Source of the DNA: a virus | Lineage: Duplodnaviria; Heunggongvirae; Uroviricota; Caudoviricetes | Direction: 5' to 3' (one strand) | IMG/VR virus record: IMGVR_UViG_2740892234_000019 | DNA: 21,808 nt | In this document: piece after piece, positions 376-21,566 of the stretch | Layout: each line of letters opens with the position of its first letter | Position numbering within the stretch: position 1 is the first letter of the stretch | Translations under genes and position numbers: made by a program | Notes under the pieces: model-generated | Told to the model about the DNA's origin: nothing | Seen by the model: the letters and a program-made list of their open reading frames with translations, nothing else | The model's database searches: none

Positions 376-384
376 AGGTGAGTA

Positions 385-5679: not shown

Positions 5680-5812
5680 TTTGTTCTCCACGTATATGTG
5701 CTGCACCACGCTGAATTCTGGTAAAAGGAAGCCCTCACCATCCGGCGATTATTGAGTCGATTATGTTTCCATAAATGCCCCCGCAGGGGCATTTGCAGTA
5801 ATGAAATCAGGC

Positions 5813-5822
5813 NNNNNNNNNN
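5813..5822. other. Assembly gap (N x10)
   Basis: Run of N. Right flank 5823-6123 is a ~95% identical copy of 5506-5812. Confidence 0.95.
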
Positions 5823-5996
5823 CACCAGCTGGCTGCAAAGCACCGCATGTTGGGCGACGCTGTAGAAGTGAGAAAGATGACCGGCAAAGCGACAGATATT
5901 TGAAAGGGAAACCGCGATATCGTTAATAACGATGTCATCTTTATTTATCTTGTCATAATAAAAATGCTTCCCGGAAAAAGTTTTAATAAATGACAT
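5823..5996 (-). pseudogene. Partial second copy of the yfdR-like 5' end (MSFIKTF... start at 5996), truncated at the gap; contig-overlap or paralog artefact
   Basis: Sequence nearly identical to 5506-5679 but with point differences; ends at the N-run. Confidence 0.5.
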
Positions 5997-6123
5997 TTTG
6001 TTCTCCACGTATATGCGCTGCACCGCGCTGAATTTGGGTAAAAGGAAGCCCTCACCATCCGGTGATTATTGAGTTAATTACGTTTCCATAAATGCCCCCG
6101 CAGGGGCATTTGCAGTAATGAAA

Positions 6124-7144
6124 TCAGGCGGTGAAAGTACCAATAAAGGTTTCTACTTTGCTGTCTTTGAATTTCTCAACAAGCAGATCACGAAATTCGT
6201 TAGCCATTTCTTCCTGCACCGCTTCCAGCTGAATAATGCGCAGAACCAGTACAGGACGATCGCCAGTGATAATGCTGAGGCGTAATTTAAACGGACGTTC
6301 TTTCAGACCTTCAAACGGAACGCATTTAAATTCAAATGCCACTGGCATAATGTCTTTGGTCTTCGCTTCGACAGATTCCATCAGGGAGCGTTTGCCGCTG
6401 AAGTCATTATCTTCAAAATCAGCGGTCTGGTTTGCTTCAATCGTGATTTTACGGATTGCCGCAGCCGCTTTTGTTGCCTGAATGGCGCCACCATTAGCAT
6501 CAAAGCCCACAAGGTAGTCGGCCCAGTCTTCAATCCATTCTGCCAGNNNNNNNNNNTTTCGCTTCGACAGACTCCATCAGAGAGCGTTTGCCGCTGAAGT
6601 CATTATCTTCAAAATCAGCGGTCTGGTTCGCTTCAATCGTGATTTTACGGACCGCCGCAGCCGCTTTTGTTGCCTGAATGGTGTCACCATTAGTATCAAA
6701 GCCCACAAGGTAGTCGGCCCAGTCTTCAATCCATTCTGCCAGTGATTTCTGGGAGTTACGCTCGCCGTTAACAGACAACAGGGCAGAGAACGGTGCTGTC
6801 TTTTTCAGTTTGAGAGTGGCGGTGTTATCTGCGTGACCTGGTTCATCAATAGTACCCAGGTTAAGCACACTGACGGCACGCATATTATCAGCATCGATAA
6901 AGCAGCGGGTGCCTTCATCTGCAAGATCTTTAGAATAACGGGTAAAGTCATCGATGCTGGCAGTGGAAAGCGCACCACGGAAACGGAAGCGATTTAAATT
7001 AAATTTTTCCAGATCATGAATGCGGAAATTCTCAGGCAATGCCACAGCATCGGCACCAATCTTACTGATAATTTCATTAACACCCTGAGCAGAAATAAGG
7101 GCATGGATTTGATTAATTGCGGTTGCGTCTAAGTTCTGAGACAT
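6124..7144 (-). CDS. Phage protein, yfdQ-like; interrupted by gap and diverged duplicate
   Basis: Track ORFs 6530-7144 and 6124-6510 are the N- and C-terminal parts of one protein. 6557-6742 duplicates 6361-6546 with mismatches. Removing the overlap gives about 274 aa. Family not recognised beyond position. Confidence 0.55.
6547..6556. other. Assembly gap (N x10)
   Basis: Run of N flanked by a ~186-bp diverged duplicate. Confidence 0.95.
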
Positions 7145-7209
7145 AATAAGTCCTCACTATATAAAGATATTCAGTGATGAGATAAATAATCAGTTAATTA
7201 AGAACGATA

Positions 7210-7572
7210 TTAATGACCTGCTGCGCGTAGTTTTCCGTCAGGTTCACCGGCAAGAGTCAGTAATTGTCCCTGGTCTGCCTGCAGAATAGTCAGGCGACCA
7301 CCGCGATTGACATACATCGGTGTTTCGGTGGTGTCTTCTTCGGAAATTTTCCCGCGGTTAGTCGGGCGAACATATGAGAGTTTGTGTTTGATTTTCACAC
7401 GGTTCTCATCAAATGGTTCGATTTCCAGGTTGAGTGAGACCTTACCTTTGGTTTTCGTGTTCATCACACCGGAAGCGACTTCACTGAGAACTGCGCCGAT
7501 TTTGGTTTCAAATACGCCGCCGTCCAGCTCCCCGATAAATGCCTGCACATCAGTACTGCGTTCGCTAGCCAT
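7210..7572 (-). CDS. Small phage protein, first gene of the leftward early operon (yfdP-like)
   Basis: 120 aa from ATG 7572 (MASERSTD...), with GAGGAG RBS 7 nt upstream. The track ORF extends further upstream without RBS support. Confidence 0.55.
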   Translation of the reverse strand: MASERSTDVQAFIGELDGGVFETKIGAVLSEVASGVMNTKTKGKVSLNLEIEPFDENRVKIKHKLSYVRPTNRGKISEEDTTETPMYVNRGGRLTILQADQGQLLTLAGEPDGKLRAAGH

Positions 7573-7913
7573 TTTGCTGCTCCTCATCATATCGACCCTG
7601 CAAGGTCGGTTGGTTTCTCCACAAAACAGAGAAGAACACCTGCGGTGGCAGCCGCCCGGATGGATTGGGTTATGAGCCCGTCGTCCGGTGATGCTCTTCT
7701 CTGTTTTGTAAAAAGAGCGGTACCAGCCGGAAGCAAGTGTACAAACTGGTACCGCCAAAGCAGTGGCTGTTGTGGTGACCGGTGCTGATCTCCGGCTTGC
7801 GGTTATTTCAGACTCTCACGGGCGTTTAATTGCCCCGCCGAACAGCTCTTTTCCGCAATAGCTGCAATGTCTTTCGCGCATCAGCCTGCGCATTCACCAC
7901 AACTCTAAAAACA

Positions 7914-7967
7914 AATGTAGGATATCCAACATGTGAGTGTCAAGAGTTTATGTTGGTTATCCTACAT
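7914..7967 (-). promoter_or_regulatory. pL-like leftward promoter with two operator sites
   Basis: Minus-strand -35 TTGACA (7938-7943), 18-nt spacer, -10 TACATT (7914-7919). Operators ATGTAGGATATCCAACAT (7915-7932) and ATGTTGGTTATCCTACAT (7950-7967). The 7915 site is the exact reverse complement of the OR site at 8729. Confidence 0.55.
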
Positions 7968-7983
7968 AAAAAGATAGGCTCAT

Positions 7984-8005
7984 AAAAAAACCGGGGATAC
8001 CCCGG
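7984..8005 (-). terminator. Rho-independent terminator downstream of the repressor gene
   Basis: CCGGGG-ata-CCCCGG hairpin; on the minus strand it is followed by a 7-T run (plus-strand A run 7984-7990). Confidence 0.6.
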
Positions 8006-8029
8006 TTTTGCGATAGTGAGGAAGATGTG

Positions 8030-8683
8030 TCAAAAATCCATTATTACTTGTTTGACAAGACCAACTATTCTGCAGTTCTCACCGCATTCAATAGTTTTAT
8101 AGTTAGGATTTAGTGGGACGAGATACCTGTTCGGCCAGTCCTCAACAAATTTTTTGAGTGTCGCTTCTTGCCCACCATTGATATGGGCAACAACGATTTT
8201 TCCGTTAATACACTCTGTATCAATAATATCTGGCTCTACGATAACGATAGAACCTTCTGGTATCGATGGTGAGCCGAGGGGATTGGTCATTGAATCACCA
8301 CGGACCCGTAGTGCAAATGCCATTTCTGATACAAGGGCGGTAGTATAAACCCACTCTTCAGCATCTTCTTTCCTGACACCAGGCTCCGTCATTGTCCATG
8401 AACCCGCCTGAACCCACGAGATGAGGGGGACTTTTTTAACTGCGAATATTTCAGGTTTTAGATTTATCTTTGGTTCAGGCGAGCCTTTTCCGCTAACAAG
8501 CCACAGAGGATCGCATTTAAGTGCGTTGGCTAGGGCTTGAAGGTTGGCTCCATTTGGTTGGTAGTCGTCCTTTTCCCATCCAGTAACCGTGACACGGTTC
8601 ACACCAGTCAAATCAGCCAGTGCTTGTTGTGTCAGGTTCAGTTCTTTTCGCCTTTGGCGAATACGATCACTCATGTTCATCAT
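8030..8683 (-). CDS. CI-type prophage repressor (N-terminal HTH, C-terminal S24 LexA-like peptidase domain)
   Basis: 217 aa. HTH region LTQQALADLTGVNRVTVTGWE; Ala-Gly candidate autocleavage site (VQAGSW); S24 catalytic Ser in VRGDSMTNP and a downstream Lys (LKKF). Divergent from the cro-like gene. Start may be ATG 8683, 8680 or 8674. Confidence 0.85.
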   Translation of the reverse strand: MMNMSDRIRQRRKELNLTQQALADLTGVNRVTVTGWEKDDYQPNGANLQALANALKCDPLWLVSGKGSPEPKINLKPEIFAVKKVPLISWVQAGSWTMTEPGVRKEDAEEWVYTTALVSEMAFALRVRGDSMTNPLGSPSIPEGSIVIVEPDIIDTECINGKIVVAHINGGQEATLKKFVEDWPNRYLVPLNPNYKTIECGENCRIVGLVKQVIMDF

Positions 8684-8747
8684 GTAGGCAATCCTACCAC
8701 ATGCCTATGTAAGATTCTTGACATTGGTATGTTGGATATCCTACATT
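8682..8747 (+). promoter_or_regulatory. OR region: two operator sites and pR-like promoter for the cro-like gene
   Basis: Operators ATGTAGGCAATCCTACCA (8682-8699, overlapping the repressor start codon) and ATGTTGGATATCCTACAT (8729-8746). -35 TTGACA 8718-8723, 18-nt spacer, -10 TACATT 8742-8747. Confidence 0.6.
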
Positions 8748-8778
8748 TCTGCTTAACGTAATTTAACGGGAGACAGAA

Positions 8779-8976
8779 ATGCGGAAATCCGACGTGATTA
8801 ATTATTTCGGCGGAGTTTGTAAAACCGCCGAAGCCCTAGGTATTAAGCATCCGTCTGTTTCAGAGTGGCCTGAGATTATTCCTGAAGGCCGAGCGTACCA
8901 GTTAGAAAAAATTACTAACGGGAAACTGAAAGTTGACGTGTCTTTATATCAAAAGACTAACAGTGCTGCGGCATAA
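8779..8976 (+). CDS. Cro-like small regulator
   Basis: 65-aa ORF with GGGAGA RBS, divergent from the repressor and immediately downstream of the pR-like promoter. Assigned by position and size rather than by motif. Confidence 0.55.
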   Translation: MRKSDVINYFGGVCKTAEALGIKHPSVSEWPEIIPEGRAYQLEKITNGKLKVDVSLYQKTNSAAA

Positions 8977-9003
8977 AAACACCACAGAAATGAGGAATTA
9001 ACC

Positions 9004-9588
9004 GTGGGTAAAGAACCTGAATGGAAAGTTGATAAACAACCAGCATGGCTGGTGGCAGCAATACGAAGAACGATTGCTGATTTACCTCATGGCTATGAGG
9101 AAGCAGCAGAAATTCTTGGTTTGTATAAATCTGATGATATCACCCCAGCAAAAGATCAATTGCATAACAGACTGCGTAGCGGTGGGGATCAAATTTTTCC
9201 ACTTGAGTGGGCCATGGTTTTACAGGATGCCAGTGGTACCAGGCATGTAACAGATGCAATAGCCCGTCGTAGTAATGGGGTGTTTGTGCCGCTGGTGGTC
9301 ATTGATGACATTGACAATGGTGACATTAATCAGCGGCTGATGGAGTCAATAGAATGGATTGGCAAGCATTCCCAGTACTTACGCAAGGCAACTGCTGATG
9401 GAGTTATTGACCAGGCTGAGCGTGAGCAAATCGAAGAGAACAGCTACCAAGTAATGGCGAAGTGGCAGGAGCATTTAACACTGTTATTTCGTGTTTTTTG
9501 TGCACCGGAAAAGAGTAACGCCCGCGAGTGTGCAGCTCCGGGCGTCGTGGCGTCGATTGCTTCTGGTTGTGGAGAAACTAACGCATGA
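9004..9588 (+). CDS. Phage regulatory protein, possibly CII-like (YdaT/CP76-like)
   Basis: 194-aa ORF with GTG start and GAGGAA RBS 5 nt upstream; sits in the cII position after cro. Family assignment is tentative. Confidence 0.45.
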
Positions 9589-9923
9589 ACAGTTTAACAA
9601 CACACTACCGTCGCTCGCAACTGATTGCGCTTCCTGTACCGGGTGGAAAAGCGAAGGTGGAGTATTGCTATGCAGTGAATGTACCAGGTGACAGGGAAAT
9701 TGTAACCCACAGCTTTGCAGAGTGGGCTGTGGGTGATTTCAACCGGCAGAAGGAGACAGTCCTTTGCGACAAGTTAACCGCTGGTTCAAAGATCACTACG
9801 GAGTGCCCGTCAGAGTCATTCGTTGGGAGCCGGAAACACAACGGGTTATCTACCTCCGTGAAGGCTATGAACATGAATGCTTCAGTCCGCTCGAACAGTT
9901 TCGTCGTAAATTCAGGGAAATAG
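9585..9923 (+). CDS. Hypothetical protein (first of an overlapping pair; possible frameshifted gene)
   Basis: ATG overlaps the upstream stop (ATGA). The N-terminal ~60 aa look protein-like; the C-terminal part is Ser-rich and overlaps 9764-9976 in another frame. Confidence 0.3.
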
Positions 9924-9976
9924 AGGTCGGTCATGAGCCTGTTAATGACATCCCAGCCCATTGTGATAAATCGTGA
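9764..9976 (+). CDS. Hypothetical small protein
   Basis: TTG start preceded by AGGAGA 7 nt upstream; charged, W-containing, protein-like sequence. Confidence 0.35.
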
Positions 9977-10925
9977 TCTTGCATGCCGTATTGGTCTGAA
10001 TGAGGCAATTGTGTTGCAGCAGCTTCATTACTGGCTGAATGAAACGAATTCAGGCACTGAGCATGGCGGAATTCGCTGGGTTTATAACACGACAGAACAG
10101 TGGCTGGAGCAGTTTCCGTTCTGGTCAGAGTCCACTCTGAAACGCACATTTGCAAGCCTGAAATCACTTGGGGTTTTGCGTCGCGAGCAACTCAATAAAT
10201 CGAAGCGTGACATGACCAACTTCTACACGATCAACTATGAAAGTGAGCTTTTAGAAGAGGTCAAAGTGAACGAATCCATCAGGTCAAAATGCACTTCTCC
10301 ATCGGGTCAAAGTGACCTGATGGATGGGCGCAAAATGACACGATCCATTGGTTCAAAACGACACGCTGTCATCGGGTCAAAATGGCCCAATGATCTTACA
10401 GAGAATACAACAGAGATTACTACAGAGAATAAAACCTCTTCTCGTCCGGACGCTTCGCAACCGGACACGCAAACGGCTGAACAGGAGTTTTTAACTCGCC
10501 ATCCTGATGCGGTTGTATTCAGCCCTAAAAAGCGCCAGTGGGGAACGCAGGATGATTTGACCTGCGCACAGTGGCTCTGGAAAAAAATCATCGCCCTGTA
10601 CGAGCAGGCCGCCGAATGTGACGGCGAGGTGGTTCGTCCCAAAGAACCGAACTGGACAGCATGGGCAAACGAAATTCGCCTGATGTGTGTGCAGGATGGT
10701 CGTACTCACAAACAAATCTGCGAGATGTACAGCCGCGTCAGCCGCGATCCGTTCTGGTGCCGTAACGTGCTCAGCCCGTCGAAGTTGCGGGAAAAATGGG
10801 ATGAGCTTTCCCTGCGCTTATCGCCGTCCGTCAGCACGCACACAGAAAAACGTGAAGACCCGTACTTCAAAGCCAGTTACGACAACGTGGACTACAGCCA
10901 GATCCCGGCAGGATTCAGGGGGTGA
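9933..10925 (+). CDS. Phage replication initiation protein, O-like (replisome organizer)
   Basis: 330-aa ORF in the O position with AGAGG RBS. Contains an internal iteron array followed by an AT-rich stretch, the classic lambdoid ori-inside-O arrangement. Confidence 0.65.
   Translation: MSLLMTSQPIVINRDLACRIGLNEAIVLQQLHYWLNETNSGTEHGGIRWVYNTTEQWLEQFPFWSESTLKRTFASLKSLGVLRREQLNKSKRDMTNFYTINYESELLEEVKVNESIRSKCTSPSGQSDLMDGRKMTRSIGSKRHAVIGSKWPNDLTENTTEITTENKTSSRPDASQPDTQTAEQEFLTRHPDAVVFSPKKRQWGTQDDLTCAQWLWKKIIALYEQAAECDGEVVRPKEPNWTAWANEIRLMCVQDGRTHKQICEMYSRVSRDPFWCRNVLSPSKLREKWDELSLRLSPSVSTHTEKREDPYFKASYDNVDYSQIPAGFRG
10257..10386. repeat. Origin-of-replication iterons (five copies of about CATCRGGTCAAARTG)
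   Basis: Direct repeats at about 10257, 10277, 10299, 10347 and 10369, followed by an A-rich segment 10390-10435. Confidence 0.6.
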
Positions 10926-10927
10926 TC

Positions 10928-11020
10928 ATGAGTCTGTTAAATGACGTTCAGAAATTCATTGAAGCCCATCCGGGCTGTACTTCCGGAGACATTGCGGATG
11001 CTTTTTACGTGGGGGCTTAA
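10928..11020 (+). CDS. Small hypothetical protein (30 aa), translationally coupled
   Basis: ATG 10928 with AGGGGG RBS; its stop overlaps the Dam ATG (TAATG). Not in the track because it is shorter than 60 aa. Confidence 0.3.
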   Translation: MSLLNDVQKFIEAHPGCTSGDIADAFYVGA

Positions 11021-11631
11021 TGAGTAATAAATATTGCCAGGCGCTGGTAGAACTGCGGAACAAACCAGCCCATGAACTGAAGGAAGTGGGCGATCAGTGG
11101 CGCACGCCGGACAACATTTTCTGGGGAATTAACACCCTGTTTGGCCCGTTTGTTCTGGATCTGTTCACCGACGGTGATAACGCCAAATGTGCCGCGTATT
11201 ACACGGCGGAAGACAATGCGCTGGCGCATGACTGGTCAGAACGTCTTGCGGAGCTTAAAGGTGCTGCCTTTGGTAATCCCCCATACAGCCGCGCCAGTCA
11301 GCATGAGGGGCAATACATCACCGGCATGCGTTACATCATGAAACATGCCAGTGCCATGCGTGATAAGGGCGGGCGCTATGTTTTCCTGATCAAAGCTGCC
11401 ACCAGCGAAGTGTGGTGGCCGGAAGATGCAGATCATATTGCTTTTATTCGCGGGCGTATTGGTTTTGAAGTGCCTGCCTGGTTTATCCCGAAAGACGAGA
11501 AGCAGGTGCCGACAGGCGCTTTCTTCGCTGGTGCTATTGCTGTTTTCGATAAGACCTGGAAGGGACCGGCAATCAGCTACATCGGGCGCGATGAACTTGA
11601 GGCATGTGGTGAGGCGTTTCTGGCGCAGGTT
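11020..11631 (+). CDS. Phage DNA N6-adenine methyltransferase (Dam family, PF05869-like); 3' end lost in gap
   Basis: Motifs DQWRTPDNIF, LDLFTDGDNAKCAAYYT and catalytic NPPY (AFGNPPYSRA). The ORF runs into the N gap at 11632. Confidence 0.75.
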
Positions 11632-11641
11632 NNNNNNNNNN
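11632..11641. other. Assembly gap (N x10)
   Basis: Run of N. Confidence 0.95.
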
Positions 11642-11921
11642 GGAACTGCGGAATAAACCAGCCCATGAACTGAAGGAAGTGGGAGATCAGTGGCGCACGC
11701 CGGATAACATTTTCTGGGGAATTAACACCCTGTTTGGTCCGTTTGTTCTGGATCTGTTCACTGACGGTGATAACGCCAAATGTGCCGCGTATTACACGGC
11801 GGAAGACAACGCGCTGGCGCATGACTGGTCAGAACGCCTTGCGGAGCTTAAAGGTGCTGCCTTTGGTAATCCTCCATACAGCCGCGCCAGTCAGCATGAG
11901 GGGCAATACATCACCGGCATG
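11642..11921 (+). other. 280-bp island between two gaps: a ~97% identical copy of the Dam 5' region (11050-11329)
   Basis: Aligns by eye to the intact Dam gene with scattered substitutions; probably a small contig from a paralogous prophage. Confidence 0.5.
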
Positions 11922-11931
11922 NNNNNNNNNN
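11922..11931. other. Assembly gap (N x10)
   Basis: Run of N. Confidence 0.95.
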
Positions 11932-11958
11932 GGAAAAACTGGTCAGGGAGATGGCGGC

Positions 11959-12285
11959 ATGACGACATTAACTCAATGCCAGCAGCAGGTGCTGGATATG
12001 CTGATTTCTTATCAGAAAGAGCGTGGCTTTCCGCCAACCAATCAGGAGGTGGCAACCATGCTGGGATACCGTTCAGTGAATGCAGCGGTAGAGCATCTTC
12101 GCGCACTGGAGAAAAAAGGCGTCATCACGATAAAGCGTGGCGTGGCCCGGGGGATAACGCTTCATACCGCGGTGAAGGACGACGACAGCGAGGCGGTCGG
12201 GATTATCCACTCACTGCTTGCCGGTGAGGAAAACGCAAGGCTGCGTGCAACCCACTGGTTACATGAGAGGGGCCTGAAAGTATGA
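11959..12285 (+). CDS. LexA N-terminal DNA-binding-domain homologue lacking the peptidase domain
   Basis: 108 aa from ATG 11959 (GGGAGA RBS 8 nt upstream). Matches the LexA winged-helix pattern: LT.CQQQVLD ... G.PPT ... LGYRS.NAA.EHL.AL.KKGVI.I..G..RGI.L. No S24 Ser/Lys domain follows. Stop overlaps the rusA start. Confidence 0.65.
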   Translation: MTTLTQCQQQVLDMLISYQKERGFPPTNQEVATMLGYRSVNAAVEHLRALEKKGVITIKRGVARGITLHTAVKDDDSEAVGIIHSLLAGEENARLRATHWLHERGLKV

Positions 12286-12677
12286 AGCTGATCCTGCCTT
12301 TTCCGCCCAGCGTGAACACGTACTGGCGACACCCCAACAAAGGGGCGTTTGCTGGTAAGAGCCTGATAAGCGCGGCGGGGCGCAAATTCCAGAGCGCGGC
12401 GTGTGCAGCAATAGTTGAGCAGTTACGTCGTCTGCCAAAACCAACGTCGGCACCTGCATCAGTGGAGATCGTGTTGTTTCCTCCGGATAACCGGATCCGC
12501 GATCTGGACAACTATAACAAGGCGCTGTTTGACGCCCTGACCCACGCGGGTGTGTGGGAAGACGACAGTCAGGTGAAAAGAATGCTGGTGGAGTGGGGAC
12601 CGGTTATCCCGGAAGGGAAGGTCGAGATCACTATCAGTAAGTACGAAAAAGCGAGTTGCAAATTAGCAACTCGGTAA
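12282..12677 (+). CDS. rusA: Holliday junction resolvase RusA
   Basis: 131 aa with the RusA family pattern (PSVNTYWRH ... RIRDLDNYNKALFDALT ... EDDSQV). Confidence 0.85.
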   Translation: MKLILPFPPSVNTYWRHPNKGAFAGKSLISAAGRKFQSAACAAIVEQLRRLPKPTSAPASVEIVLFPPDNRIRDLDNYNKALFDALTHAGVWEDDSQVKRMLVEWGPVIPEGKVEITISKYEKASCKLATR

Positions 12678-12828
12678 CGGAATTGAGCAACACCCTAAAT
12701 TTGGGTATTACCTCGTTAAAGATACTGTATTTATGAACAGTGTATCCTTGATAACTATTAAAAATCGCAGTAAGTTCATCTTGCATCAACGAAAAGGGAG
12801 TGCAGTCCCGAAATTTGTGGAGAAACCA

Positions 12829-13644
12829 ATGAATCAGTTGCTTGTAATTGATGGCGTTTCTGTGCGCCAGTACTTTGAATCTAACTACTGTCTTAACGAC
12901 CTTCAGAAAGCTGCTCTTCTTGCCGCTGGTGAGAATCGCTCCTCCCGTTCGCTGGAAGTTCACGAGTTTATGCGTCGTCCTGAAACGAAGGCTCTTGTGG
13001 AATTACTGGAAGAAGAAACTACGGGAGATTCCCGTAGTATTCCTGTCATCACCATTCAGGGGCGCAATGGTGGGACGTATGTCTGTAAAGAGCTGGTCTA
13101 TGCATATGCAATGTGGATCAGCCCGGCATTCAGCTTAAAAGTGATACGTACTTTTGATGCGCTTCATAATTCATCACCAGAAGAAACCACATCCGACAAA
13201 ATTAAATCCGGGGTCATTCTGCTTGAATCAGCAGCAAAGACTCTAAATCTGTCAAACTCCTCGAAACTTGGTGCATACCAGAAATTATCAAAGGTAGCAG
13301 GTCTTCCTGAACTTATGCCGAGCTATGCCATTGATGCACCTGCTGATGCGCCAGATGGTTCAAGCCGCCCGACACTGTCACTGAGTGCACTGCTGAAACA
13401 GTATGGTATACGCCTGACGGCTAATCAGGCATATCACCAGATGGTGAAACTGGGGATCGTCGAGCAGCGCGAACGATACAGCCGTACCGCGATTAACAAC
13501 ATCAAAAAATTCTGGTCGCTGACAGCGAAAGGTTGCATGTTCGGCAAGAACATCACCAGTCCTGCAAATCCGCGCGAGACGCAGCCGCATTTCTTCGAAT
13601 CCCGATTCCCTGAGCTGTTAAAGCTGCTCGATACCGTTCACTGA
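12829..13644 (+). CDS. KilA-N domain protein (antirepressor-like)
   Basis: ATG 12829 with GGAGAA RBS. N-terminal segment ...GTYVCKELVYAYAMWISPAFSLKVIRTF resembles the KilA-N/APSES fold. AT-rich leader. Confidence 0.55.
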   Translation: MNQLLVIDGVSVRQYFESNYCLNDLQKAALLAAGENRSSRSLEVHEFMRRPETKALVELLEEETTGDSRSIPVITIQGRNGGTYVCKELVYAYAMWISPAFSLKVIRTFDALHNSSPEETTSDKIKSGVILLESAAKTLNLSNSSKLGAYQKLSKVAGLPELMPSYAIDAPADAPDGSSRPTLSLSALLKQYGIRLTANQAYHQMVKLGIVEQRERYSRTAINNIKKFWSLTAKGCMFGKNITSPANPRETQPHFFESRFPELLKLLDTVH

Positions 13645-13659
13645 TGGGAGGCGTGGAGC

Positions 13660-14175
13660 ATGAGAATTACACCACCCCATCTGCAGCCAGTTTTATCCAG
13701 GGTTAAACGTTTTGTTGAACGAATGCCGGAAGGCGCAACACTGACCCAGATATCACAGAAAGTGCAGGCGTACAGTCTACTGAATAAAAGGGATAAGGAG
13801 ATACTCATTGGCATTATCCGCGACAGTGGACTTCTGGTCGTTGCGAATGATGGAAGAACTACAACGTTACATCATCCTAAATTTGGACATCAGGCAGTAA
13901 ATAGTGAAATACCAGTAAAAACAGAGGAACCCGTTGTGATTAAAAAGACCGTTACTCCGGATGAATTACGCAGGCATGCTGAGGAGCTGATCAGGGCTGC
14001 GGAAGAAGCAGAGAAGAAATTTAATGATCGTGCGGAAATTAAAAAGCAACTGGATCCTCTGAAACTGGAAATCCTCCAGGCGTATGGAATGGCAAGTCGT
14101 AAATTTGATGAGTTTGTTGATGCTATGGCGGATATGGGGAAAGCGGTACAGAAACTGAAACAGATTGTGCTGTGA
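13660..14175 (+). CDS. Hypothetical phage protein
   Basis: 171-aa ORF, tightly packed in the operon, with RBS. No recognisable motif. Confidence 0.5.
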   Translation: MRITPPHLQPVLSRVKRFVERMPEGATLTQISQKVQAYSLLNKRDKEILIGIIRDSGLLVVANDGRTTTLHHPKFGHQAVNSEIPVKTEEPVVIKKTVTPDELRRHAEELIRAAEEAEKKFNDRAEIKKQLDPLKLEILQAYGMASRKFDEFVDAMADMGKAVQKLKQIVL

Positions 14176-14184
14176 GGTTCTACG

Positions 14185-15174
14185 TTGAGAGCACTGCTGA
14201 CCCCTGAAATTGCCCCGCGTATGGGGATCGTCTTGTTCAGACCAGGTTCAGAGCTGATGCCCCTGTTTATGCAGGGGCGTGTCCTGCTGGAGCCTGAGCC
14301 GGAACGTTATTCATCTTTTGCCAGTGGTGCCGTTCCGGCAGCATCACAACCGCTGGCGGATGATCCTGCCGTTCGGGCCGTGTTCCGCCATGAGGCGGTG
14401 ATCCGTCGTGCTGGTGGCGTGGAATGTCTTGAAAGCTGGTTACTTCGTGAAAAAGGCTGCCAGTGGCCTCATTCCGACTGGCACAGCGAGAACATGACCA
14501 CAATGCGACACGCTCCGGGCGCAATCCGTCTGTGCTGGCACTGCGATAACCAGCTGCGCGATCAGTTCACGGAACGGCTGGAAGCAATGGCAACGGATAA
14601 CTGTGCCCGCTGGGTGTTGTCTGTTGTGCGTCGGGATCTCGGTTTTGATGATAGTCACGTTGTGACAATGCCGGAACTGTGCTGGTGGCTGATTCGTAAT
14701 GACCTGGCGTATGCCTTACCGGAAAGTGCAGCCCGTAAGGCACTGAGATTACCGAAGCNNNNNNNNNNGTCTGTCACCCGGGAAAGTGACCTTGTGCCTT
14801 CGGTTACTGCCACCAGCATCATCCAGGATAAGGCGAAAAAGGTGCTGGCGCTGAAAGTGGATCCGGAGTCGCCGGAGTCTTTTATGTTACGCCCCAAACG
14901 TCGTCGCTGGGTTAATGAAAAGTACACGCGCTGGGTTAAGACACAGCCTTGCGCGTGTTGTGGTAAGCCAGCCGACGATCCACATCACCTGATTGGCCAT
15001 GGTCAGGGTGGAATGGGTACAAAAGCGCATGACCTTTTTGTGTTGCCTTTGTGCAGAAAACACCATGACGAACTGCATGCGGATACCGTGGCATTTGAAG
15101 AGAAGTATGGTTCCCAACTGGAGCTGATATTTCGTTTTATCGATCGCGCGCTGGCGATTGGTGTGCTGTCCTGA
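14185..15174 (+). CDS. DUF968-like protein with C-terminal HNH/zinc-finger-like motif; contains an assembly gap
   Basis: C-terminal CACCGKPADDPHHLIGHG ... LCRKHHDELH. The frame across the gap at 14759-14768 is not trustworthy; TTG start is uncertain. Confidence 0.5.
   Translation: MRALLTPEIAPRMGIVLFRPGSELMPLFMQGRVLLEPEPERYSSFASGAVPAASQPLADDPAVRAVFRHEAVIRRAGGVECLESWLLREKGCQWPHSDWHSENMTTMRHAPGAIRLCWHCDNQLRDQFTERLEAMATDNCARWVLSVVRRDLGFDDSHVVTMPELCWWLIRNDLAYALPESAARKALRLPKXXXXSVTRESDLVPSVTATSIIQDKAKKVLALKVDPESPESFMLRPKRRRWVNEKYTRWVKTQPCACCGKPADDPHHLIGHGQGGMGTKAHDLFVLPLCRKHHDELHADTVAFEEKYGSQLELIFRFIDRALAIGVLS
14759..14768. other. Assembly gap (N x10)
   Basis: Run of N; no flanking duplicate noticed. 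Confidence 0.95.
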
Positions 15175-15191
15175 TTTTGTGGAGAAAGTTG

Positions 15192-15572
15192 ATGCGTGAT
15201 ATTCAGATGGTTCTTGAACGCTGGGGGGCATGGGCGGCAAGTGGTAACACCGGGGTGGACTATTCTCCGATCGCTGCCGGATTCAAAGGACTTTTACCAT
15301 CTGCCACTAAACCACGTCCGGCCTGCTGCGATGATGACGGACTTATCATTGAAAACTGTCTTGCTCGTCTGAAGCAGAAAAAACCTGAGGAGTATTCGCT
15401 TCTCATTGCTCATTATTTGTTGCGAATATCAAAAAGACAGATAGCCAGGACGAGAAAGAAAAGCGAAAAAGCAATACGAATTGAGATGCAGATAGCCGAA
15501 GGGTTTATTGACGGATGTTTGTCTGTGCTGGGGGTAAGACTGGAGATGGACGACTGGCTGCTAAAAAAGTAA
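15192..15572 (+). CDS. Late-gene antitermination protein Q
   Basis: 126 aa from ATG 15192 (GGAGAA RBS). N-terminus MRDIQMVLERWGAWAA... and CCDDDG motif as recalled for E. coli prophage Q (QuuD-like) antiterminators. Confidence 0.8.
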   Translation: MRDIQMVLERWGAWAASGNTGVDYSPIAAGFKGLLPSATKPRPACCDDDGLIIENCLARLKQKKPEEYSLLIAHYLLRISKRQIARTRKKSEKAIRIEMQIAEGFIDGCLSVLGVRLEMDDWLLKK

Positions 15573-15640
15573 AAAATGATTAGTGCGGTCCGCAAAAAGT
15601 ATGTCAGTATGTTAAGAGTGGTTACTTCGCCACACAGCTT

Positions 15641-15666
15641 AAACCCGCCGCGAGCGGGTTTTTTTA
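15641..15666 (+). terminator. Rho-independent terminator downstream of Q (tR'-like)
   Basis: CCCGC-cgcga-GCGGG hairpin followed by a 7-T run. The late promoter and Q-utilisation site are expected in 15573-15640. Confidence 0.6.
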
Positions 15667-15787
15667 TGGCTGAAATCGGTCCAGTACAGTAAACGTGCTG
15701 GTGGCGGTGAATACCTGTCTTTCAGCTTGCCGGCTTTTTCGACAAGAGTTATTGGTGTGTCACGTTAACCGGAAAAGGGAAAAAGAC

Positions 15788-16285
15788 ATGCTGAAACAGC
15801 AGGATATGACAGAAACCGCCAGAGTGGTGTTTAATGAATTANNNNNNNNNNTCAGTTAATACTGACCCAACTATCAGCGGGGTGAACTGGAAAAGCCACA
15901 TCACCAACTGGTCAGCACATACAGTGAGCTGAACCGGCAGTATACGGAACTGCTGAGTGAATATAAAAATTTGCGGCGGTATTTCGGTGTGACGGTGCAG
16001 GTGCCGTACACCGATGTGTGGACGTATAAACCGGTGCAGTACTATCCAGGGAAACATCCGTGCGAAAAACCGGCAGAAATGCTGCGGCAGATAATCTGCG
16101 CGAGCAGTCGTCCGGGTGACCTGGTGGCGGATTTTTTCATGGGTTCTGGCTCAACCATAAAAGCAGCTATGGCGCTCGGGCGTCGTGCAACTGGTGTTGA
16201 ACTGGAGGCAGAACGTTTTGCGCAGACCGTTAAGGAGATTAGTCACATCCTTACATGCTCAATTGATGACGGGAAGGATGGATAA
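15788..16285 (+). CDS. DNA methyltransferase (beta-class N6A/N4C, PF01555-like); interior lost in gap
   Basis: C-terminal part carries HPCEKP and FFMGSGST (motif I FxGxG) and ends at 16285. An 18-codon N-terminal piece (15788-15841) precedes the gap at 15842-15851. The true gene must be longer than drawn. Confidence 0.55.
15842..15851. other. Assembly gap (N x10)
   Basis: Run of N. Confidence 0.95.
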
Positions 16286-16678
16286 AGATATGGTCAGTTC
16301 AGGCTGTGAAGCAAGTAGACAGATAAGGCTGCAATAAAAACTGACAATAGTAAAATAGCTTTTTCTCAGGTAGTCATGAATACGATCTCTTAAAGCGCCC
16401 GCTGATACCAGCGGGCAATACATACTGGCATTAATGTTAAGTTCAGGGATAATTCATCGTATTTTGTGGTACGACGCTATCAATATTAATAAACAGTATT
16501 TTTCATGTAAAATTTCTGTTTTTTTGATCTGATTCTCGTTTCCTGGGTTATGATGTTGTTGTGAACCATGCTGTTGAATGATAATGTTCGGATATAAAAT
16601 TGTTGCTGATATGTAGCGCAGTGAGCAGGTGGTATTTCTGTTGCTGAGTGTACGGATACAGTGCTTCCCTCCCTCAGC

Positions 16679-16688
16679 GGGGGGGGGG
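16679..16688. repeat. G10 homopolymer tract
   Basis: Ten consecutive G in the AT-rich region; could be a slippage-prone tract or a sequencing artefact. Confidence 0.4.
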
Positions 16689-17511
16689 CAGGTGTGCTGT
16701 GGTTTTAGAGACACCGGAAACGAGAATGATGCGGGTTTGCTGGTGCCGGGATAGAGTCGCCGGAGGTCATGACATAGAGCAAAAAAGGAATGTGCATGCA
16801 AATACACACCTCTTCGGAGAGCTCTTCTTTATATGGATGAGCCTCAAGGTCAATAGTTTATCTGTTATGTATTCATATGTTGTTACTTATATAATCCATA
16901 CGGGCATATCATCAGTACACACATACTATTATGGCATTTTATTTTTGTTTTAACTGAATTCCCGGGGCACTCTTTTTGATTTCTGATAAGGAACCAGAAT
17001 TTTCTGTTAAATGGTGTCACGTTGTAAATGGTTAATGGAAGCAGCTTATTATCCATAATCACACCTGAGTTAACAGGTGTGAGAATACTTCCGGGTGGCA
17101 GGAACACATCTGACTGATACCAGATTATCAACTTTATTTTACACCATACAGTTGAAAACGTTATTCCGCTTGATGGGCATATCACTGTGTCAATAACTAT
17201 CCATTCCATCTTTTAACCTTCTCGGTACACATTGCTTTCGATTGTTTTGCTAAAAATCATAGTCAATAAATCAGTGTAACTCATTGAAAAAGATCGTCTT
17301 CTTTGTCTTCCTGGGGTTTTCTTTTCTAATTTTGTATCACTTTGGTTCAAGTTGTTTCATTTTTTTGTAATACAAATTAGCAGGATGAGCGGGAATATAA
17401 AAAAATCGGATGTTTTTGTAATGGATATTATTTTTTTTGTAAAATAATGTATTTTTATTTAAATTTCTATCAGAAAAGAATTTATTGTTCCTTTATATGG
17501 TGGAAAAGGTC

Positions 17512-19449
17512 ATGGTATTTAAACACTACGATGTGGTCAGGGCGGCGTCGCCGTCAGATCTTGCGGAAAAGCTGACACAAAAACTGAAGGAGGGGGGGCA
17601 GCCATTTGGCAGCCCGGTGGCCATCACGCCTTATACTCTGATGCAGGCCATTGCGGCGGAAGGTGATGTCACCACACCTGTGTTGGTGAAGCCGTCGGAT
17701 GGAGAAGGCACAGTAATCAGCGCCACCAGAGACCCGGAGTATTACTTTGTTGTGGTTCTGGCGGGGCAGTCAAACAGCATGGCATATGGTGAAGGCCTTC
17801 CGCTGCCGGAGACATATGACCGTCCGGACCCGCGTATTAAGCAGCTGGCGCGCCGCAGTACGGTGACACCGGGCGGTGCAGCATGCAAATATAACGACAT
17901 CATTCCGGCGGACCATTGTCTGCATGATGTGCAGGACATGAGCCGTCTTAACCATCCGAAAGCGGACCTGTCAAAGGGGCAGTACGGAACCGTGGGGCAG
18001 GGGCTGCATATCGCCAAAAAACTGCTGCCGTTTATACCGGCGAATGCGGGCATTCTGCTGGTTCCGTGCTGTCGTGGTGGTTCAGCGTTCACCACCGGAG
18101 CCGATGGCACATACAGTGACGCGAGTGGTGCCTCGGAGAATTCAACCCGCTGGGGTGTGGACAAGCCGCTGTATAAGGACCTTATCGGTCGAACAAAAGC
18201 AGCACTGAAGAAGAATCCGAAAAATGTGCTGTTTGCCGTGGTGTGGATGCAGGGGGAATTTGATTTTGGCGGTACGCCGGTAAATCACGCCGCACAGTTT
18301 GGTGCGCTGGTTGATAAATTCCGTGCAGACCTGGCGGATATGGCAGGCCAGTGCGTCGGTGGCTCTGCTGGCGGTGTTCCCTGGATATGCGGGGACACGA
18401 CGTATTTCTGGAAGCAGAAGAACGAATCCACGTACCAGACGGTGTATGGCAGCTATAAAAACAAAACGGAAAAGAATATCCATTTCGTACCGTTCATGAC
18501 GGATGAGAACGGGGTGAATGTGCCGACGAACAAACCGGAAGAAGACCCGGACATTCCGGGTATCGGATATTACGGTTCGAAATGGCGTGACAGCTCAGCC
18601 ACCTGGACGTCACAGGACAGGGCGAGCCATTTCAGTTCATGGGCTCGCCGCGGGATTATTTCCGACCGTCTGGCAACGGCGATTTTGCGCCATGCGGGAA
18701 GAGTGGCGCTAAACGCGGGGGCATCATCGACAGTATCAGAGGTGCGCCCGTCATCGCCTTCCGGTGCAGAAGCCACAGGCGTCACAACACTGCTCTCTTA
18801 CCTTGCCAGCGAGTCAGAGGGAAGCCTGAAAGTACAGGGATGGTCAGCCAGTGGCGGCAGGGCAGAAGTGGTCAGCGATGCGGAGGGAACCGGAGGTAAG
18901 GCAGTGAAGCTGACCAAGGAAGCCGGTAAAAGCAGCTGGGTGCTGGAGTACGCCGCGGGCAACGGTGCGGCTCTGTTACAGAAAGGGGGGCAGATTCGCT
19001 GCCGCTTTAAGGTTTCGGGAGCGCTGGCTGCGAACCAGTATGTTATGGCGTTTTACTGGCCGGTATCTTCACTGCCACAGGGCGTTGCCCTGACCGGAGA
19101 CGGGGGGAATAACCTGCTGGCAGCGTTCTACATCCAGACAGATGCAAAAGACCTGAATGTGATGTACCACAATGCGAAAGTGGCGACAAACAACCTGAAA
19201 CTGGGAACCTTTGGCGCATTTGATAACGAATGGCATACGCTGGCTTTCCGCTTTGCCGGGAATAACAGCCTTCAGGTGACGCCGGTTATTGATGGTCAGG
19301 ATGGCACACCGTTCACGCTGACGCAGTCACCGGTCAGTGCCTTTGCGGCGGATAAACTGCATGTGACAGACATTACCAGAGGTGCGACTTACCCGGTACT
19401 GATAGACAGCATTGCGGTGGAAGTGAACAGCACAGACACTGCGGCATGA
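17512..19449 (+). CDS. nanS-p: Prophage sialate 9-O-acetylesterase (NanS-p type, SASA/DUF303 esterase domain plus C-terminal domain)
   Basis: GQSN esterase motif (VVVLAGQSNSMAYG). N-terminus MVFKHYDVVRAASP... and position between Q and the lysis genes match the esterase I recall from Stx/lambdoid prophages. Start ATG 17512 is preferred over the track TTG 17485. Confidence 0.75.
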   Translation: MVFKHYDVVRAASPSDLAEKLTQKLKEGGQPFGSPVAITPYTLMQAIAAEGDVTTPVLVKPSDGEGTVISATRDPEYYFVVVLAGQSNSMAYGEGLPLPETYDRPDPRIKQLARRSTVTPGGAACKYNDIIPADHCLHDVQDMSRLNHPKADLSKGQYGTVGQGLHIAKKLLPFIPANAGILLVPCCRGGSAFTTGADGTYSDASGASENSTRWGVDKPLYKDLIGRTKAALKKNPKNVLFAVVWMQGEFDFGGTPVNHAAQFGALVDKFRADLADMAGQCVGGSAGGVPWICGDTTYFWKQKNESTYQTVYGSYKNKTEKNIHFVPFMTDENGVNVPTNKPEEDPDIPGIGYYGSKWRDSSATWTSQDRASHFSSWARRGIISDRLATAILRHAGRVALNAGASSTVSEVRPSSPSGAEATGVTTLLSYLASESEGSLKVQGWSASGGRAEVVSDAEGTGGKAVKLTKEAGKSSWVLEYAAGNGAALLQKGGQIRCRFKVSGALAANQYVMAFYWPVSSLPQGVALTGDGGNNLLAAFYIQTDAKDLNVMYHNAKVATNNLKLGTFGAFDNEWHTLAFRFAGNNSLQVTPVIDGQDGTPFTLTQSPVSAFAADKLHVTDITRGATYPVLIDSIAVEVNSTDTAA

Positions 19450-19457
19450 TAAAAAAA

Positions 19458-19486
19458 CCGCCAGCGACAGGAATGGACGCTGGCGG
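19458..19486 (-). terminator. Hairpin with the T-run on the minus strand, immediately after the nanS-p stop
   Basis: CCGCCAGCG-11 nt-CGCTGGCGG preceded on the plus strand by a 7-A run (19451-19457). Terminator-like only for a leftward transcript. Confidence 0.3.
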
Positions 19487-19583
19487 TGGTGATACCTATG
19501 GAGAAAAAATAAAGGAACGATACTTTCGTACTCTGGTTTTTAATGAAAACAGTTCTTATTGTCAACAATAACGGAAAGAAATT

Positions 19584-19763
19584 ATGACATTTCTGAACCA
19601 GTTAATGCTGTACTTCTGTACGGTGGTCTGTGTGCTGTATCTCCTTTCGGGTGGGTACAGGGCCATGCGTGACTTCTGGCGCAGACAGATTGACAAAAGG
19701 GCCGCTGAGAAAATCAGCGCCAGTCAGTCAGCCGGAAGCAAACCCGAAGAGCCGCTCATTTAG
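19584..19763 (+). CDS. Small single-pass membrane protein (59 aa)
   Basis: ATG 19584 with GGAAAG upstream. Hydrophobic segment LMLYFCTVVCVLYLL followed by a charged tail. Below the track length cut-off. Confidence 0.35.
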   Translation: MTFLNQLMLYFCTVVCVLYLLSGGYRAMRDFWRRQIDKRAAEKISASQSAGSKPEEPLI

Positions 19764-19803
19764 CGGCAACTTTCTTAATCACACCTTTCGACGAGAAAAT
19801 CCC

Positions 19804-20076
19804 ATGTCAGAAATTACATCCCTGGTCACTGCAGAGGCAGTGAAGGAAGTCCTGCGCTCTGAAGAAGTCCTGAGCGCACTGAAACAAAAACTCCGCCAGA
19901 ATCTTGAGGCGCGTCTTGATGCAGAGGTTGATGCCATTCTGGATGAGCTGCTTGGTGTACAGGCAGAGCCACCGACTGAAGCGGGAGATACCACCGCAGA
20001 GAGCGGTGAAGTTCAGCCTGAATCACCGGTCGCCGATGCGACTGAACCTCAACCCGAATCGGTCATGATGCTGTAA
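19804..20076 (+). CDS. Small strongly acidic protein (about 90 aa)
   Basis: About 20 Asp/Glu against 6 Lys/Arg, predicted helical N-terminal half. The internal ATG 19804 is preferred because the upstream extension overlaps the small membrane ORF. Confidence 0.45.
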
Positions 20077-20087
20077 CGGGGAGTCAG

Positions 20088-20117
20088 GGCCATCAGTAAA
20101 CAGCTGCTGGCCTTTTT
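20088..20117 (+). terminator. Rho-independent terminator just upstream of the holin gene
   Basis: 9-bp stem GGCCATCAG / CTGCTGGCC (one mismatch), 7-nt loop, then TTTTT. Confidence 0.55.
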
Positions 20118-20152
20118 CATGTTGTGAGCTTCCGGATTGCGGGAGACGGGGT

Positions 20153-20368
20153 ATGTACCAGATGGAAAAAATCACAACAGGTGTGTCATACACCACGTCA
20201 GCGGTGGGAACGGGCTACTGGTTCCTGCAGTTGCTGGACAGGGTTTCCCCGTCTCAGTGGGCGGCAATAGGCGTGCTGGGGAGTCTGCTGTTTGGTCTGC
20301 TGACGTACCTGACGAACCTGTATTTCAAGATTAAAGAAGACCGGCGTAAGGCGGCGCGGGGAGAGTAA
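20153..20368 (+). CDS. Class II holin (phage 21 S-type pinholin)
   Basis: 71 aa, almost identical in pattern to the phage 21 S / EssD sequence I recall (...GYWFLQ ... [15 protein letters not shown] ... [21 protein letters not shown]). Dual-start motif MYQMEK. Confidence 0.85.
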
Positions 20369-20372
20369 GCTG

Positions 20373-20992
20373 ATGAGCAGGAAATTCCGCTATGGTTTAT
20401 CAGCGGTAGTTCTGGCGCTGATTGCCGCAGGTGCTTCTGCGCCTGAAATCCTCGACCAGTTTCTGGATGAAAAGGAAGGCAACCACACCACGGCATACCG
20501 TGATGGTGTGGGTATCTGGACCATCTGCCGTGGAGCCACCCGGGTGGATGGTAAGCCTGTTATTCCTGGCATGAAGCTGTCGAAGGGGAAATGCGACCAG
20601 GTTAACGCCATTGAGCGTGATAAGGCGCTGGCATGGNNNNNNNNNNGATTCCTGGCATGAAGCTGTCGAAGGAAAAATGCGACCGGGTTAACGCTATCGA
20701 ACGGGATAAGGCGCTGGCATGGGTGGCGAAGAACATCAGAGTGCCACTGACTGAACCCCAGAAAGCGGGTATTGCGTCATTCTGTCCTTACAACATTGGC
20801 CCAGGTAAGTGTTTCCCGTCGACGTTTTATAAACGAATTAATGCAGGAGATCGAAAAGGTGCCTGCGAAGCGATTCGCTGGTGGATTAAGGACGGTGGCA
20901 GAGACTGCCGTATTCGCTCAAATAACTGTTATGGTCAGGTCTCACGGCGTGACCAGGAGAGCGCGCTGGCGTGCTGGGGAATTGACAGATAA
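20373..20992 (+). CDS. SAR endolysin (T4-lysozyme-like, phage 21 R-type); interrupted by gap and diverged duplicate
   Basis: N-terminal signal-anchor-release segment GLSAVVLALIAAGASA; catalytic E-D-T region DEKEGNHTTAYRDGVGIWTICRGAT. 20647-20716 repeats the ~75 bp before the gap with mismatches, so the frame shifts across the junction. Confidence 0.8.
20637..20646. other. Assembly gap (N x10)
   Basis: Run of N flanked by a diverged duplicate. Confidence 0.95.
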
Positions 20993-21190
20993 GCAGAATA
21001 TTTTGCTGAAAAATGCGGTTTGCTCACACGGACGGATAACACAAAATCCTGCGAACTGACAAAAACTAAGTGAATAAAAGTAAAAACCCCATTTGTTGGC
21101 TGCAAGCGGGGTTTTGTGTTTCCTGACTCCGGAAAAGTCAAAGGAGAAAGTGTGTTTGATTTTAGCAAACTGATTCGGGAGATTCGAGTG

Positions 21191-21289
21191 ATGGCTGAAA
21201 AATTATCAACCTGGAAGTACATCCTTATCTGGCTGGTGTTTGTGATTATGGCCTCCGGTTATTTCATCGGTCAGATACGCTGGTGGTGA
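21191..21289 (+). CDS. Small hydrophobic ORF between endolysin and Rz (32 aa; 46 aa from GTG 21152 with AAGGAG RBS)
   Basis: Single hydrophobic segment WKYILIWLVFVIMASGYFIG. Speculative. Confidence 0.25.
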   Translation: MAEKLSTWKYILIWLVFVIMASGYFIGQIRWW

Positions 21290-21290
21290 A

Positions 21291-21370
21291 ATGAACCGCG
21301 TACTGTGCGTGGTCATCATTGCCCTGCTGGTGGCCTGTGGTGCGCTTAGTCTGGGGCTGAATCATTACCG
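21291..21370 (+). CDS. Rz i-spanin, 5' fragment truncated by gap
   Basis: MNRVLCVVIIALLVACGALSLGLNHY... matches the Rz N-terminal TM segment and NHYR motif; runs into the N gap at 21371. Confidence 0.6.
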
Positions 21371-21380
21371 NNNNNNNNNN
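21371..21380. other. Assembly gap (N x10)
   Basis: Run of N. Confidence 0.95.
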
Positions 21381-21429
21381 AAGACGTGACCAGGAGAGTG
21401 CGCTGTCATGCTGGGGTATCGACAGGTAA
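21381..21429 (+). other. 3' end of a second, diverged endolysin copy (...RDQESALSCWGIDR stop) and its downstream region
   Basis: 21381-21520 aligns with 20941-21080 with several substitutions. Confidence 0.45.
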
Positions 21430-21538
21430 GCAGAATATTTTGCTGAAAAATGACGTTGGCCAACGCGGGCAGATAACACGAAATCCTGCGAACTGGCAAA
21501 ATGTAAGTGAATAAAGTCAACAAGATTGTTTCATGAAG

Positions 21539-21566
21539 AGGCACCGTAATGGTGCCTTTGTCATTT
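21539..21566 (+). terminator. Putative rho-independent terminator
   Basis: AGGCACC-gtaat-GGTGCCT hairpin followed by a T-rich tract (TTTGTCATTT). Confidence 0.45.

Follow-up and report, generated by a model that had tools for sequence, protein, structure and literature searches.

The stretch of DNA analysed here (the window, 21,808 nucleotides (nt)) is the IMG/VR virus record IMGVR_UViG_2740892234_000019. It corresponds to positions 166,055-187,862 of CCQE01000119.1 (GCA_000752595.1), a public draft scaffold of 187,862 nt; a stretch of this scaffold (L017) reproduces positions 7512-21808 of the window without difference, including six runs of N and the final base. From left to right, the window carries an integrase gene, a CHAT gene, yfdR, yfdQ and yfdP, a cI-like repressor with cro, a Dam gene, a DUF968 gene, the antiterminator Q, an esterase gene and a holin-lysozyme-Rz module. 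It is interrupted by eight runs of exactly 10 N, which divide it into nine segments. The DNA is of the Escherichia coli lambdoid prophage kind, and each of the 5,426 complete genomes searched gave some match to it. The original prediction had counted the eight gaps correctly and read the window as a scaffold of related lambdoid prophages from one genome. This was borne out, since the segments map at 99.9-100% identity to different prophages of a single chromosome, NZ_CP027544.1. Very probably, the window forms the 3' end of a scaffold built from short reads that strings together at least four related prophages of one genome of the Shiga toxin-producing E. coli (STEC) type, and its arrangement is an assembly artefact.

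The closed reference, NZ_CP027544.1, belongs to strain 2013C-3264, a clinical STEC O103:H25 (PMC7285328), and each segment was mapped to it separately. Prophage A lies at ~3.77 Mb beside yjjG, prophage B at ~3.35 Mb, and prophage C at ~5.23 Mb at mtfA/tRNA-Ser, with A and B about 420-430 kb apart. According to the RefSeq annotation of the loci, all three carry an integrase, a cI/cro-type switch, a Q antiterminator and a holin-lysozyme-Rz module in lambda order. The prophages of the source genome share genes at 85-99% identity. By origin, segments 1 to 9 follow each other as A, B, A, B, B, B, B to C, D/C and D, where D is a lysozyme-antirepressor-Rz module. The mapping demonstrates the multi-prophage origin of the window. 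No single locus accounts for it: none of the 5,426 complete genomes covered at least 80% of the window in one place.

The match to prophages A and B was very close. Segments 4, 5 and 6 showed no mismatch to prophage B in 4180 nt. Over segments 1 to 6 (15.8 kb), 14 residual differences were found, each of them the allele of the other prophage, and there were no private single-nucleotide polymorphisms (SNPs). This lack of private SNPs indicates that the source strain is essentially identical to 2013C-3264 across the elements of prophages A and B. Judged by their sequence, the differences inside the contigs of segments 1 to 6 are allele swaps between paralogues. Copies at 95-97% identity could in principle also be alleles of different strains, if two E. 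coli strains, through co-culture or contamination, had contributed allelic versions of one prophage. However, a single closed genome held both versions of every tested A/B block, with 0.4-1.9 Mb between the loci and 99.9-100% identity. Seven other closed genomes likewise have two places for segments 2 and 4, and private SNPs are absent, as described above. We consider that a mixture of strains has a very slim chance of being the cause. The query segments found up to 19 places per genome.

The repeats at the junctions were measured by self-BLAST of the nine segments (E-values of 1e-24 to 1e-140). Ungapped, diverged duplicates with 86-97% identity flank five of the eight junctions; none was found by self-BLAST at the junctions at 11922, 14759 and 15842. 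The original prediction had located the five pairs to within 1-7 nt, and its estimate of 95-97% identity applies to the first three, while the last two are more diverged (Table 1). The copies differ by substitutions alone, with one codon phase favoured (8/8 in pair 3 and 10/14 in pair 1), which points to the evolutionary divergence of coding sequence and not to sequencing error. The latter was ruled out as the origin of the mismatches by this pattern and by the exact match of each version to a real paralogue.

Taken as written, the sequence alone would suggest genuine diverged tandem duplications within a prophage, and adjacent copies of 75-306 nt with 86-97% identity resemble known prophage duplications. 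Unlike those, the copies in the window are separated by N, and each is 99.9-100% identical to a different, distant prophage. Every duplicated block occurs as one copy in 16 of the 16 independent reference loci that carry it, and both copies were adjacent in none of these 16 loci. Furthermore, the copies are bounded by the k-1 rule described below, and such an arrangement would leave yfdQ, Dam and the lysozyme gene disrupted. With these results, tandem duplication is vanishingly improbable. The repeated blocks are artefactual, as the original prediction had proposed.

Table 1. Segments, N runs, duplicate pairs and gene remnants of the window. Coordinates labelled L002, L004, L005 and L006 refer to the loci of prophages A, B and C and of module D, respectively; distances at the N runs are those in the closed genome.
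Feature	Window position	Strand	Origin or distance	Match	Content or remarks
Segment 1	1-5812 (5812 nt)	+	prophage A, L002 10001-15812	5812/5812 nt aligned; 3 mismatches (5437, 5443, 5452), all B allele	integrase 385-1602, CHAT/BovA 1736-3868 (+), DUF551, hypothetical, yfdR 5143-5679, last 6 nt of yfdQ
N run 1	5813-5822 (10 N)		offset -306 nt		segment 2 parallel to tail of segment 1
Segment 2	5823-6546 (724 nt)	+	prophage B, L004 12291-13014; best match in NZ_CP027544.1 at 3,347,290	99.86%; 96.4% to prophage A; its only mismatch, at 6208, carries the A allele	B-in branch 307 nt, collapsed A/B stretch 6130-6360 (231 nt), B-out branch 186 nt (6361-6546); prophage B yfdR 5' part and yfdQ 3' part
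N run 2	6547-6556 (10 N)		offset -185 nt		head of segment 3 parallel to tail of segment 2
Segment 3	6557-11631 (5075 nt)	+	prophage A, L002 16044-21118	99.80%; 10 mismatches, all B alleles at isolated sites	yfdQ 5' part, yfdP, cI-like repressor 8030-8683 (-), cro, ymfL, DUF4222, replication-region open reading frame, Dam 11020-11631 (stops 42 nt before its end)
N run 3	11632-11641 (10 N)		offset -582 nt		segment 4 parallel to interior of segment 3 (11049-11328)
Segment 4	11642-11921 (280 nt)	+	prophage B, L004 17530-17809	280/280 identical; 97.1% to A	internal Dam fragment; one graph node
N run 4	11922-11931 (10 N)		distance +314 nt on prophage B
Segment 5	11932-14758 (2827 nt)	+	prophage B, L004 18124-20950 (NZ_CP027544.1 3,353,123-3,355,949)	2827/2827 identical	Dam 3' end, LexA-like, RusA, KilA-N, hypothetical, DUF968 5' part
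N run 5	14759-14768 (10 N)		+10 nt on prophage B, collinear		stands for CTGTTGTGCC within DUF968
Segment 6	14769-15841 (1073 nt)	+	prophage B, L004 20961-22033	1073/1073 identical	starts on variant base (G in B, A in A); DUF968 3' part, antiterminator Q, start of small open reading frame
N run 6	15842-15851 (10 N)		distance +65 nt on prophage B
Segment 7	15852-20636 (4785 nt)	+	prophage B for 15852-16081 (230 nt, L004 22099-22328); prophage C from 16082	15869-20636 99.35% to L005 19508-24271	methyltransferase 3' part, iraM (-), DUF6645/SASA esterase 17512-19449 (+), DUF1378, DUF826, holin, lysozyme 5' part
N run 7	20637-20646 (10 N)		offset -75 nt		head of segment 8 parallel to tail of segment 7
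Segment 8	20647-21370 (724 nt)	+	D-type head 20647-20740, then prophage C, L005 24197-24919		rest of lysozyme and first 80 nt of Rz
N run 8	21371-21380 (10 N)		offset about -427 nt		segment 9 parallel to segment 8 from about 20944
Segment 9	21381-21808 (428 nt)	+	D-type, L006 3001-3428	428/428 identical	lysozyme 3' end and antirepressor gene start; ends with scaffold
Pair 1	5507-5812 and 5824-6129			95.4%	E 4e-140
Pair 2	6362-6546 and 6558-6742			95.7%
Pair 3 (Dam)	11050-11328 and 11643-11921			97.1%
Pair 4	20562-20636 and 20648-20722			90.7%
Pair 5	20948-21078 and 21385-21515			86.3%
yfdQ					split: B-type 3' part and A-type 5' part
yfdR					5' end present twice
Dam					A-type truncated, then B-type internal fragment and B-type tail
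Methyltransferase					B/C chimera without 5' part
Lysozyme					mosaic C, D, C
Rz					cut after 80 nt
DUF968				B-type at 100% both sides	intact, 10 nt masked
Prophage A past the fork (A-out path)			L002 21130 onward		sequence AGAACGGCTGG; also given as AGAACGGCTGGTCAGG

The closed genome gave the real distance across the N runs, which ranged from -582 to +314 nt, and 10 N were written in every case. The run of 10 N is a placeholder and not a measurement. Masking of real bases was considered as another meaning of the N runs; it holds at gap 5 alone, where exactly 10 nt are replaced, and the distances rule it out elsewhere. Gap 5 lies in a 58-nt stretch over which A and B do not differ, that is 48 + 10 k-mers, corresponding to a shared node of 10 k-mers. 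Between the end of segment 3 and the start of segment 5 there are 11 nt, via a 59-nt stretch common to A and B. Gaps 3 and 4 together conceal a false A-to-B join.

The consequences for gene linkage differ along the window. The original prediction held that physical linkage across the gaps, including that of the CHAT gene to the rest, was unproven. This doubt was unnecessary for segments 1 and 3, which belong to one prophage and are collinear in prophage A of 2013C-3264, so their linkage is genuine. The true sequence between them is ~231 nt long and is represented by 6130-6360 of segment 2. The order int, CHAT, DUF551, yfdR, yfdQ, yfdP was found in nine of the ten independent assemblies shown, the other (L013) having extra genes between DUF551 and yfdR, and yfdR and yfdQ were single and intact in all ten. 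Segments 4, 5 and 6 and the first 230 nt of segment 7 are collinear on prophage B. The doubt was justified between segments 3 and 5: the join of the Dam gene of A to the LexA-like/RusA/KilA-N/DUF968/Q region of B is false.

Several genes are damaged by these joins. The yfdQ, Dam, methyltransferase, lysozyme and Rz models are indeed chimeric or truncated, as had been predicted, whereas the DUF968 gene, listed with them, is not. The C/D mixture in the lysozyme gene is artefactual. Two public gene calls cross N runs, a Dam call of 217 amino acids (aa) (window 11020-11673; L017 3509-4162) and a DUF968 call of 329 aa (window 14185-15174; L017 6674-7663). The former is a false model, having a tail translated from the B-type internal fragment. 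The Pfam record gave no match for these N-spanning Dam and DUF968 calls, while intact copies elsewhere match PF05869 and PF06147.

The positions of the segment boundaries carry information on the assembly. For the ends, we determined the longest exact suffix common to the segment end and its paralogue. The boundary tests reached seven of the eight ends and seven of seven starts; the end of segment 8 and the start of segment 9 need the D prophage of the source strain. The common suffix was exactly 48 nt at the ends of segments 1, 2, 3, 4, 5, 6 and 7, a length that only 0.15% of arbitrary positions gave where A and B are homologous. At all seven starts, the segment opens on the first base that differs from the paralogue, and the paralogue-identical stretch upstream measures 53 to >399 nt, i.e., at least 48 nt. 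Ends located 48 nt past the last difference and starts on the first difference, at a fork, point to a de Bruijn graph with k = 49, for which a node should end k-1 past the last difference. The segment boundaries are thus node boundaries of such a graph. The phrase 'collapsed or mis-joined reads' in the original prediction needs amending in this respect: the pieces are discrete, paralogue-specific graph nodes, and collapse took place at isolated SNPs inside the contigs.

The branch lengths that the closed genome predicts at k = 49 agreed with the segments. The B branch in Dam comprises 280 k-mers, equal to the 280 nt of segment 4. The B branches predicted in yfdR/yfdQ have 307 and 186 k-mers, and segment 2 is the sum 307 + 231 + 186 = 724 nt. 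Segments 2 and 8, the two bridging segments, are equal in length (724 nt each). The variant positions account for the length of segment 2; no reason was found for segment 8 to match it, so this equality is probably a coincidence.

The differences between A and B were grouped into one cluster when separated by <49 nt. Fourteen collapsible clusters with branches of up to 93 k-mers occur once each in the window, with one of the two alleles, A or B. One more short cluster, the fifteenth (72 k-mers, A 21130-21153), is situated at the fork between the A-out and B-out paths and does not form a bubble. The five clusters of at least 162 k-mers all retain their own version in the A contig, and three of them (307, 186 and 280 k-mers) recur as extra B segments, which yields the 'duplicates'. 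The bubble cut-off is therefore between 93 and 162 k-mers.

These boundaries also bear on the stage at which the pieces were joined. The contigs could have been assembled separately and then ordered on a reference with Mauve, ABACAS or similar, with a 10-N spacer, the paralogues having landed on one reference prophage. The segments do follow their start coordinates when projected on one lambdoid map, and the spacer is constant whatever the true distance. However, stand-alone de Bruijn contigs retain their first k-1 bases, whereas here the starts come 48 nt 'too late' and the ends keep the k-1 tail. Truncated starts together with complete k-1 ends indicate concatenation inside the assembler. 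Moreover, two of the joins truly span 10 and 11 nt, equal to shared nodes of 10 and 11 k-mers, which would otherwise be a coincidence, and the B-to-C switch inside a contig (see below) arises in the graph, not at ordering. Reference ordering is left with a small chance of being the right explanation.

The assembly artefact can be traced through the following sequence of events. Where paralogues were identical, they merged in the de Bruijn graph (k = 49), and dense clusters of differences remained separate branches. Bubbles at isolated SNPs (up to 93 k-mers) were popped to one allele, and long branches (at least 162 k-mers) were retained. The scaffolder probably then strung the parallel branches of different prophages in series, with a fixed 10-N placeholder inserted wherever it estimated a small or negative distance. 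The outcome is false tandem duplicates, genes split between paralogues, an unflagged switch from B to C, and the left arm of A joined to the right arm of B.

The assembler was probably Velvet, to judge from three features: the first k-1 bases are missing from each appended node, no gap is shorter than 10 N, and the cut-off for bubbles lies near 100. Zerbino and Birney reportedly described Velvet in 2008, with paired-end joining of nodes and Tour Bus popping of bubbles. Bubble merging by Tour Bus has been described elsewhere (PMC3441218). The window resembles Velvet-type scaffolds in its ends k-1 = 48 nt past the last difference, its starts without the first k-1 bases, its constant 10 N, and its short bubbles popped and long ones kept, with the cut-off between 93 and 162 k-mers. 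In contrast to such scaffolds, it also has 10 N where the true distances are +65 and +314 nt, a result that plain distance estimates do not predict. A literature search for the 10-N rule of Velvet found no paper in the collection searched that states it, only irrelevant uses of '10 Ns'. Velvet 1.2.04 served to assemble and scaffold a set of Norwegian STEC drafts, O103:H25 among them, from 100-bp pairs (inserts of 370 bp), and these were deposited in the ENA in 2014 (PMC4216125). Such a background would fit the window. The supplements of that paper do not list CCQE01, and a literature search for this accession gave no paper.

One mis-join carries no N at all. Within segment 7, prophage B passes into prophage C across a 56-nt common stretch (16026-16081). 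The 449 nt from 15852 to 16300 had no match at ≥99% identity in the 5,426 complete genomes. The switch is a false join, and the N runs do not mark all mis-joins. Segment 7 also carries D-type alleles at 20329-20509. The 645-aa esterase encoded here was found on one contig only, CCQE01000119.1 itself, in a collection of 153 billion genes. It combines alleles from different paralogues with four substitutions (17946, 18281, 18291 and 18348) that match no fetched locus, and it is probably a chimeric protein without natural existence. The insertions and deletions (indels) between segment 7 and C are limited to the homopolymers at 16670-16680 (G10 vs G8) and 17424-17431 (T8 vs T7) and to one base at 15872. 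Many prophage genes are annotated as 'frameshifted' in the closed PacBio genome, so some of the homopolymer indels may be errors of the reference and not of the draft.

Lambdoid prophages in STEC recombine readily, and the allele combination of segment 7 and its esterase protein occur in no other assembly. Both points would suit a true recombinant prophage at yjjG, in which the left arm of A, Borvo gene included, is followed by a replication/Q region of B type and a late region of C type. Resident prophages would have exchanged recently via the 56-59 nt stretches, and segments 2 and 4, the head of segment 8 and segment 9 alone would be artefacts. However, the A/B and B/C switch points coincide with graph forks, which means that alternative 'in' and 'out' branches existed in the reads, as expected with intact A, B and C. 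The switches also fall in common stretches of 56-59 nt, just above k. The lack of private SNPs argues for the same clone as 2013C-3264 and hence for the same architecture. Furthermore, A and B lie 420 kb from each other in direct orientation, and a reciprocal exchange would be expected to delete the interval. We give such a recombinant a slim chance.

The right end of the window involves the D module, which is present in 2013C-3342, O104:H4 strains and O157:H7 86-24, among others. Positions 20647-20740 of segment 8 are identical (94/94) to L006 2704-2797, and their 10 mismatches to C all fall in 20673-20739. Beyond this head, segment 8 is identical to C. The D module of segment 9 was found at 428/428 in at least 20 of the STEC genomes listed, with 258 records at ≥99%. 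Both the head of segment 8 and segment 9 are 100% identical to the D module of the O104:H4 and O157:H7 86-24 genomes.

Some observations weigh against the interpretation as a Velvet-type scaffold of one STEC genome. Module D was not found in 2013C-3264 at ≥99.5% identity and is documented from other STEC genomes only; accordingly, the source strain seems to hold an extra prophage of the Shiga toxin phage type, or a remnant of one. Five of the 27 substitutions between segment 7 and C match no fetched locus. The name of the assembler and the value of k were derived from the sequence alone. Velvet represents a node by the last base of each k-mer, applies a minimum gap of 10, and has a default max_branch_length of 100. 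The missing first k-1 bases, the 10-N gaps and the unmerged long bubbles are all present in the sequence and may be specific to Velvet. Finally, Velvet would normally write the +314 gap as about 314 N. As a suggestion only, the forced insertion of parallel nodes may have consumed the estimated distance at this gap.

A side observation concerns the CHAT gene, situated in the genuinely linked part of the window. Its product matched the PADLOC model BovA over its full length (E 2e-241, residues 4-709), and scored 26.5 bits with the Pfam CHAT model, little more than the cut-off of 24. The gene is thus predicted to constitute a Borvo (BovA) system, a single-gene defence system. The protein is widespread, occurring in 762 blocks. 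In the yjjG prophage of 2013C-3342, the same integrase-adjacent slot is occupied by a gene of the dGTPase family (L001 7980-9206). The integrase-adjacent slot of the yjjG prophage behaves like a swappable position for defence cargo.

The window shares with the repeat-induced mis-assembly of prophages in STEC and enterohaemorrhagic E. coli the modules concerned, namely yfdQ/R, Dam, DUF968, methyltransferase and holin-lysozyme-Rz at 85-99% identity; it differs in that it was resolved to the base through the closed genome of the same clone. The kind of artefact is already well understood, and the analysis adds no new biology. The practical gain is a fast, read-free test for such scaffolds: contigs that end k-1 past the last difference to a paralogue reveal the artefact and also recover k. 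A plausible-looking 'prophage' of 21.8 kb in a public record is nevertheless a composite of at least four elements, which calls for caution against treating such scaffolds as prophage genomes. Provirus catalogues, neighbourhood statistics and models trained on such scaffolds inherit false linkages, such as the apparent tie of the Borvo/CHAT gene to one Q-lysis module.

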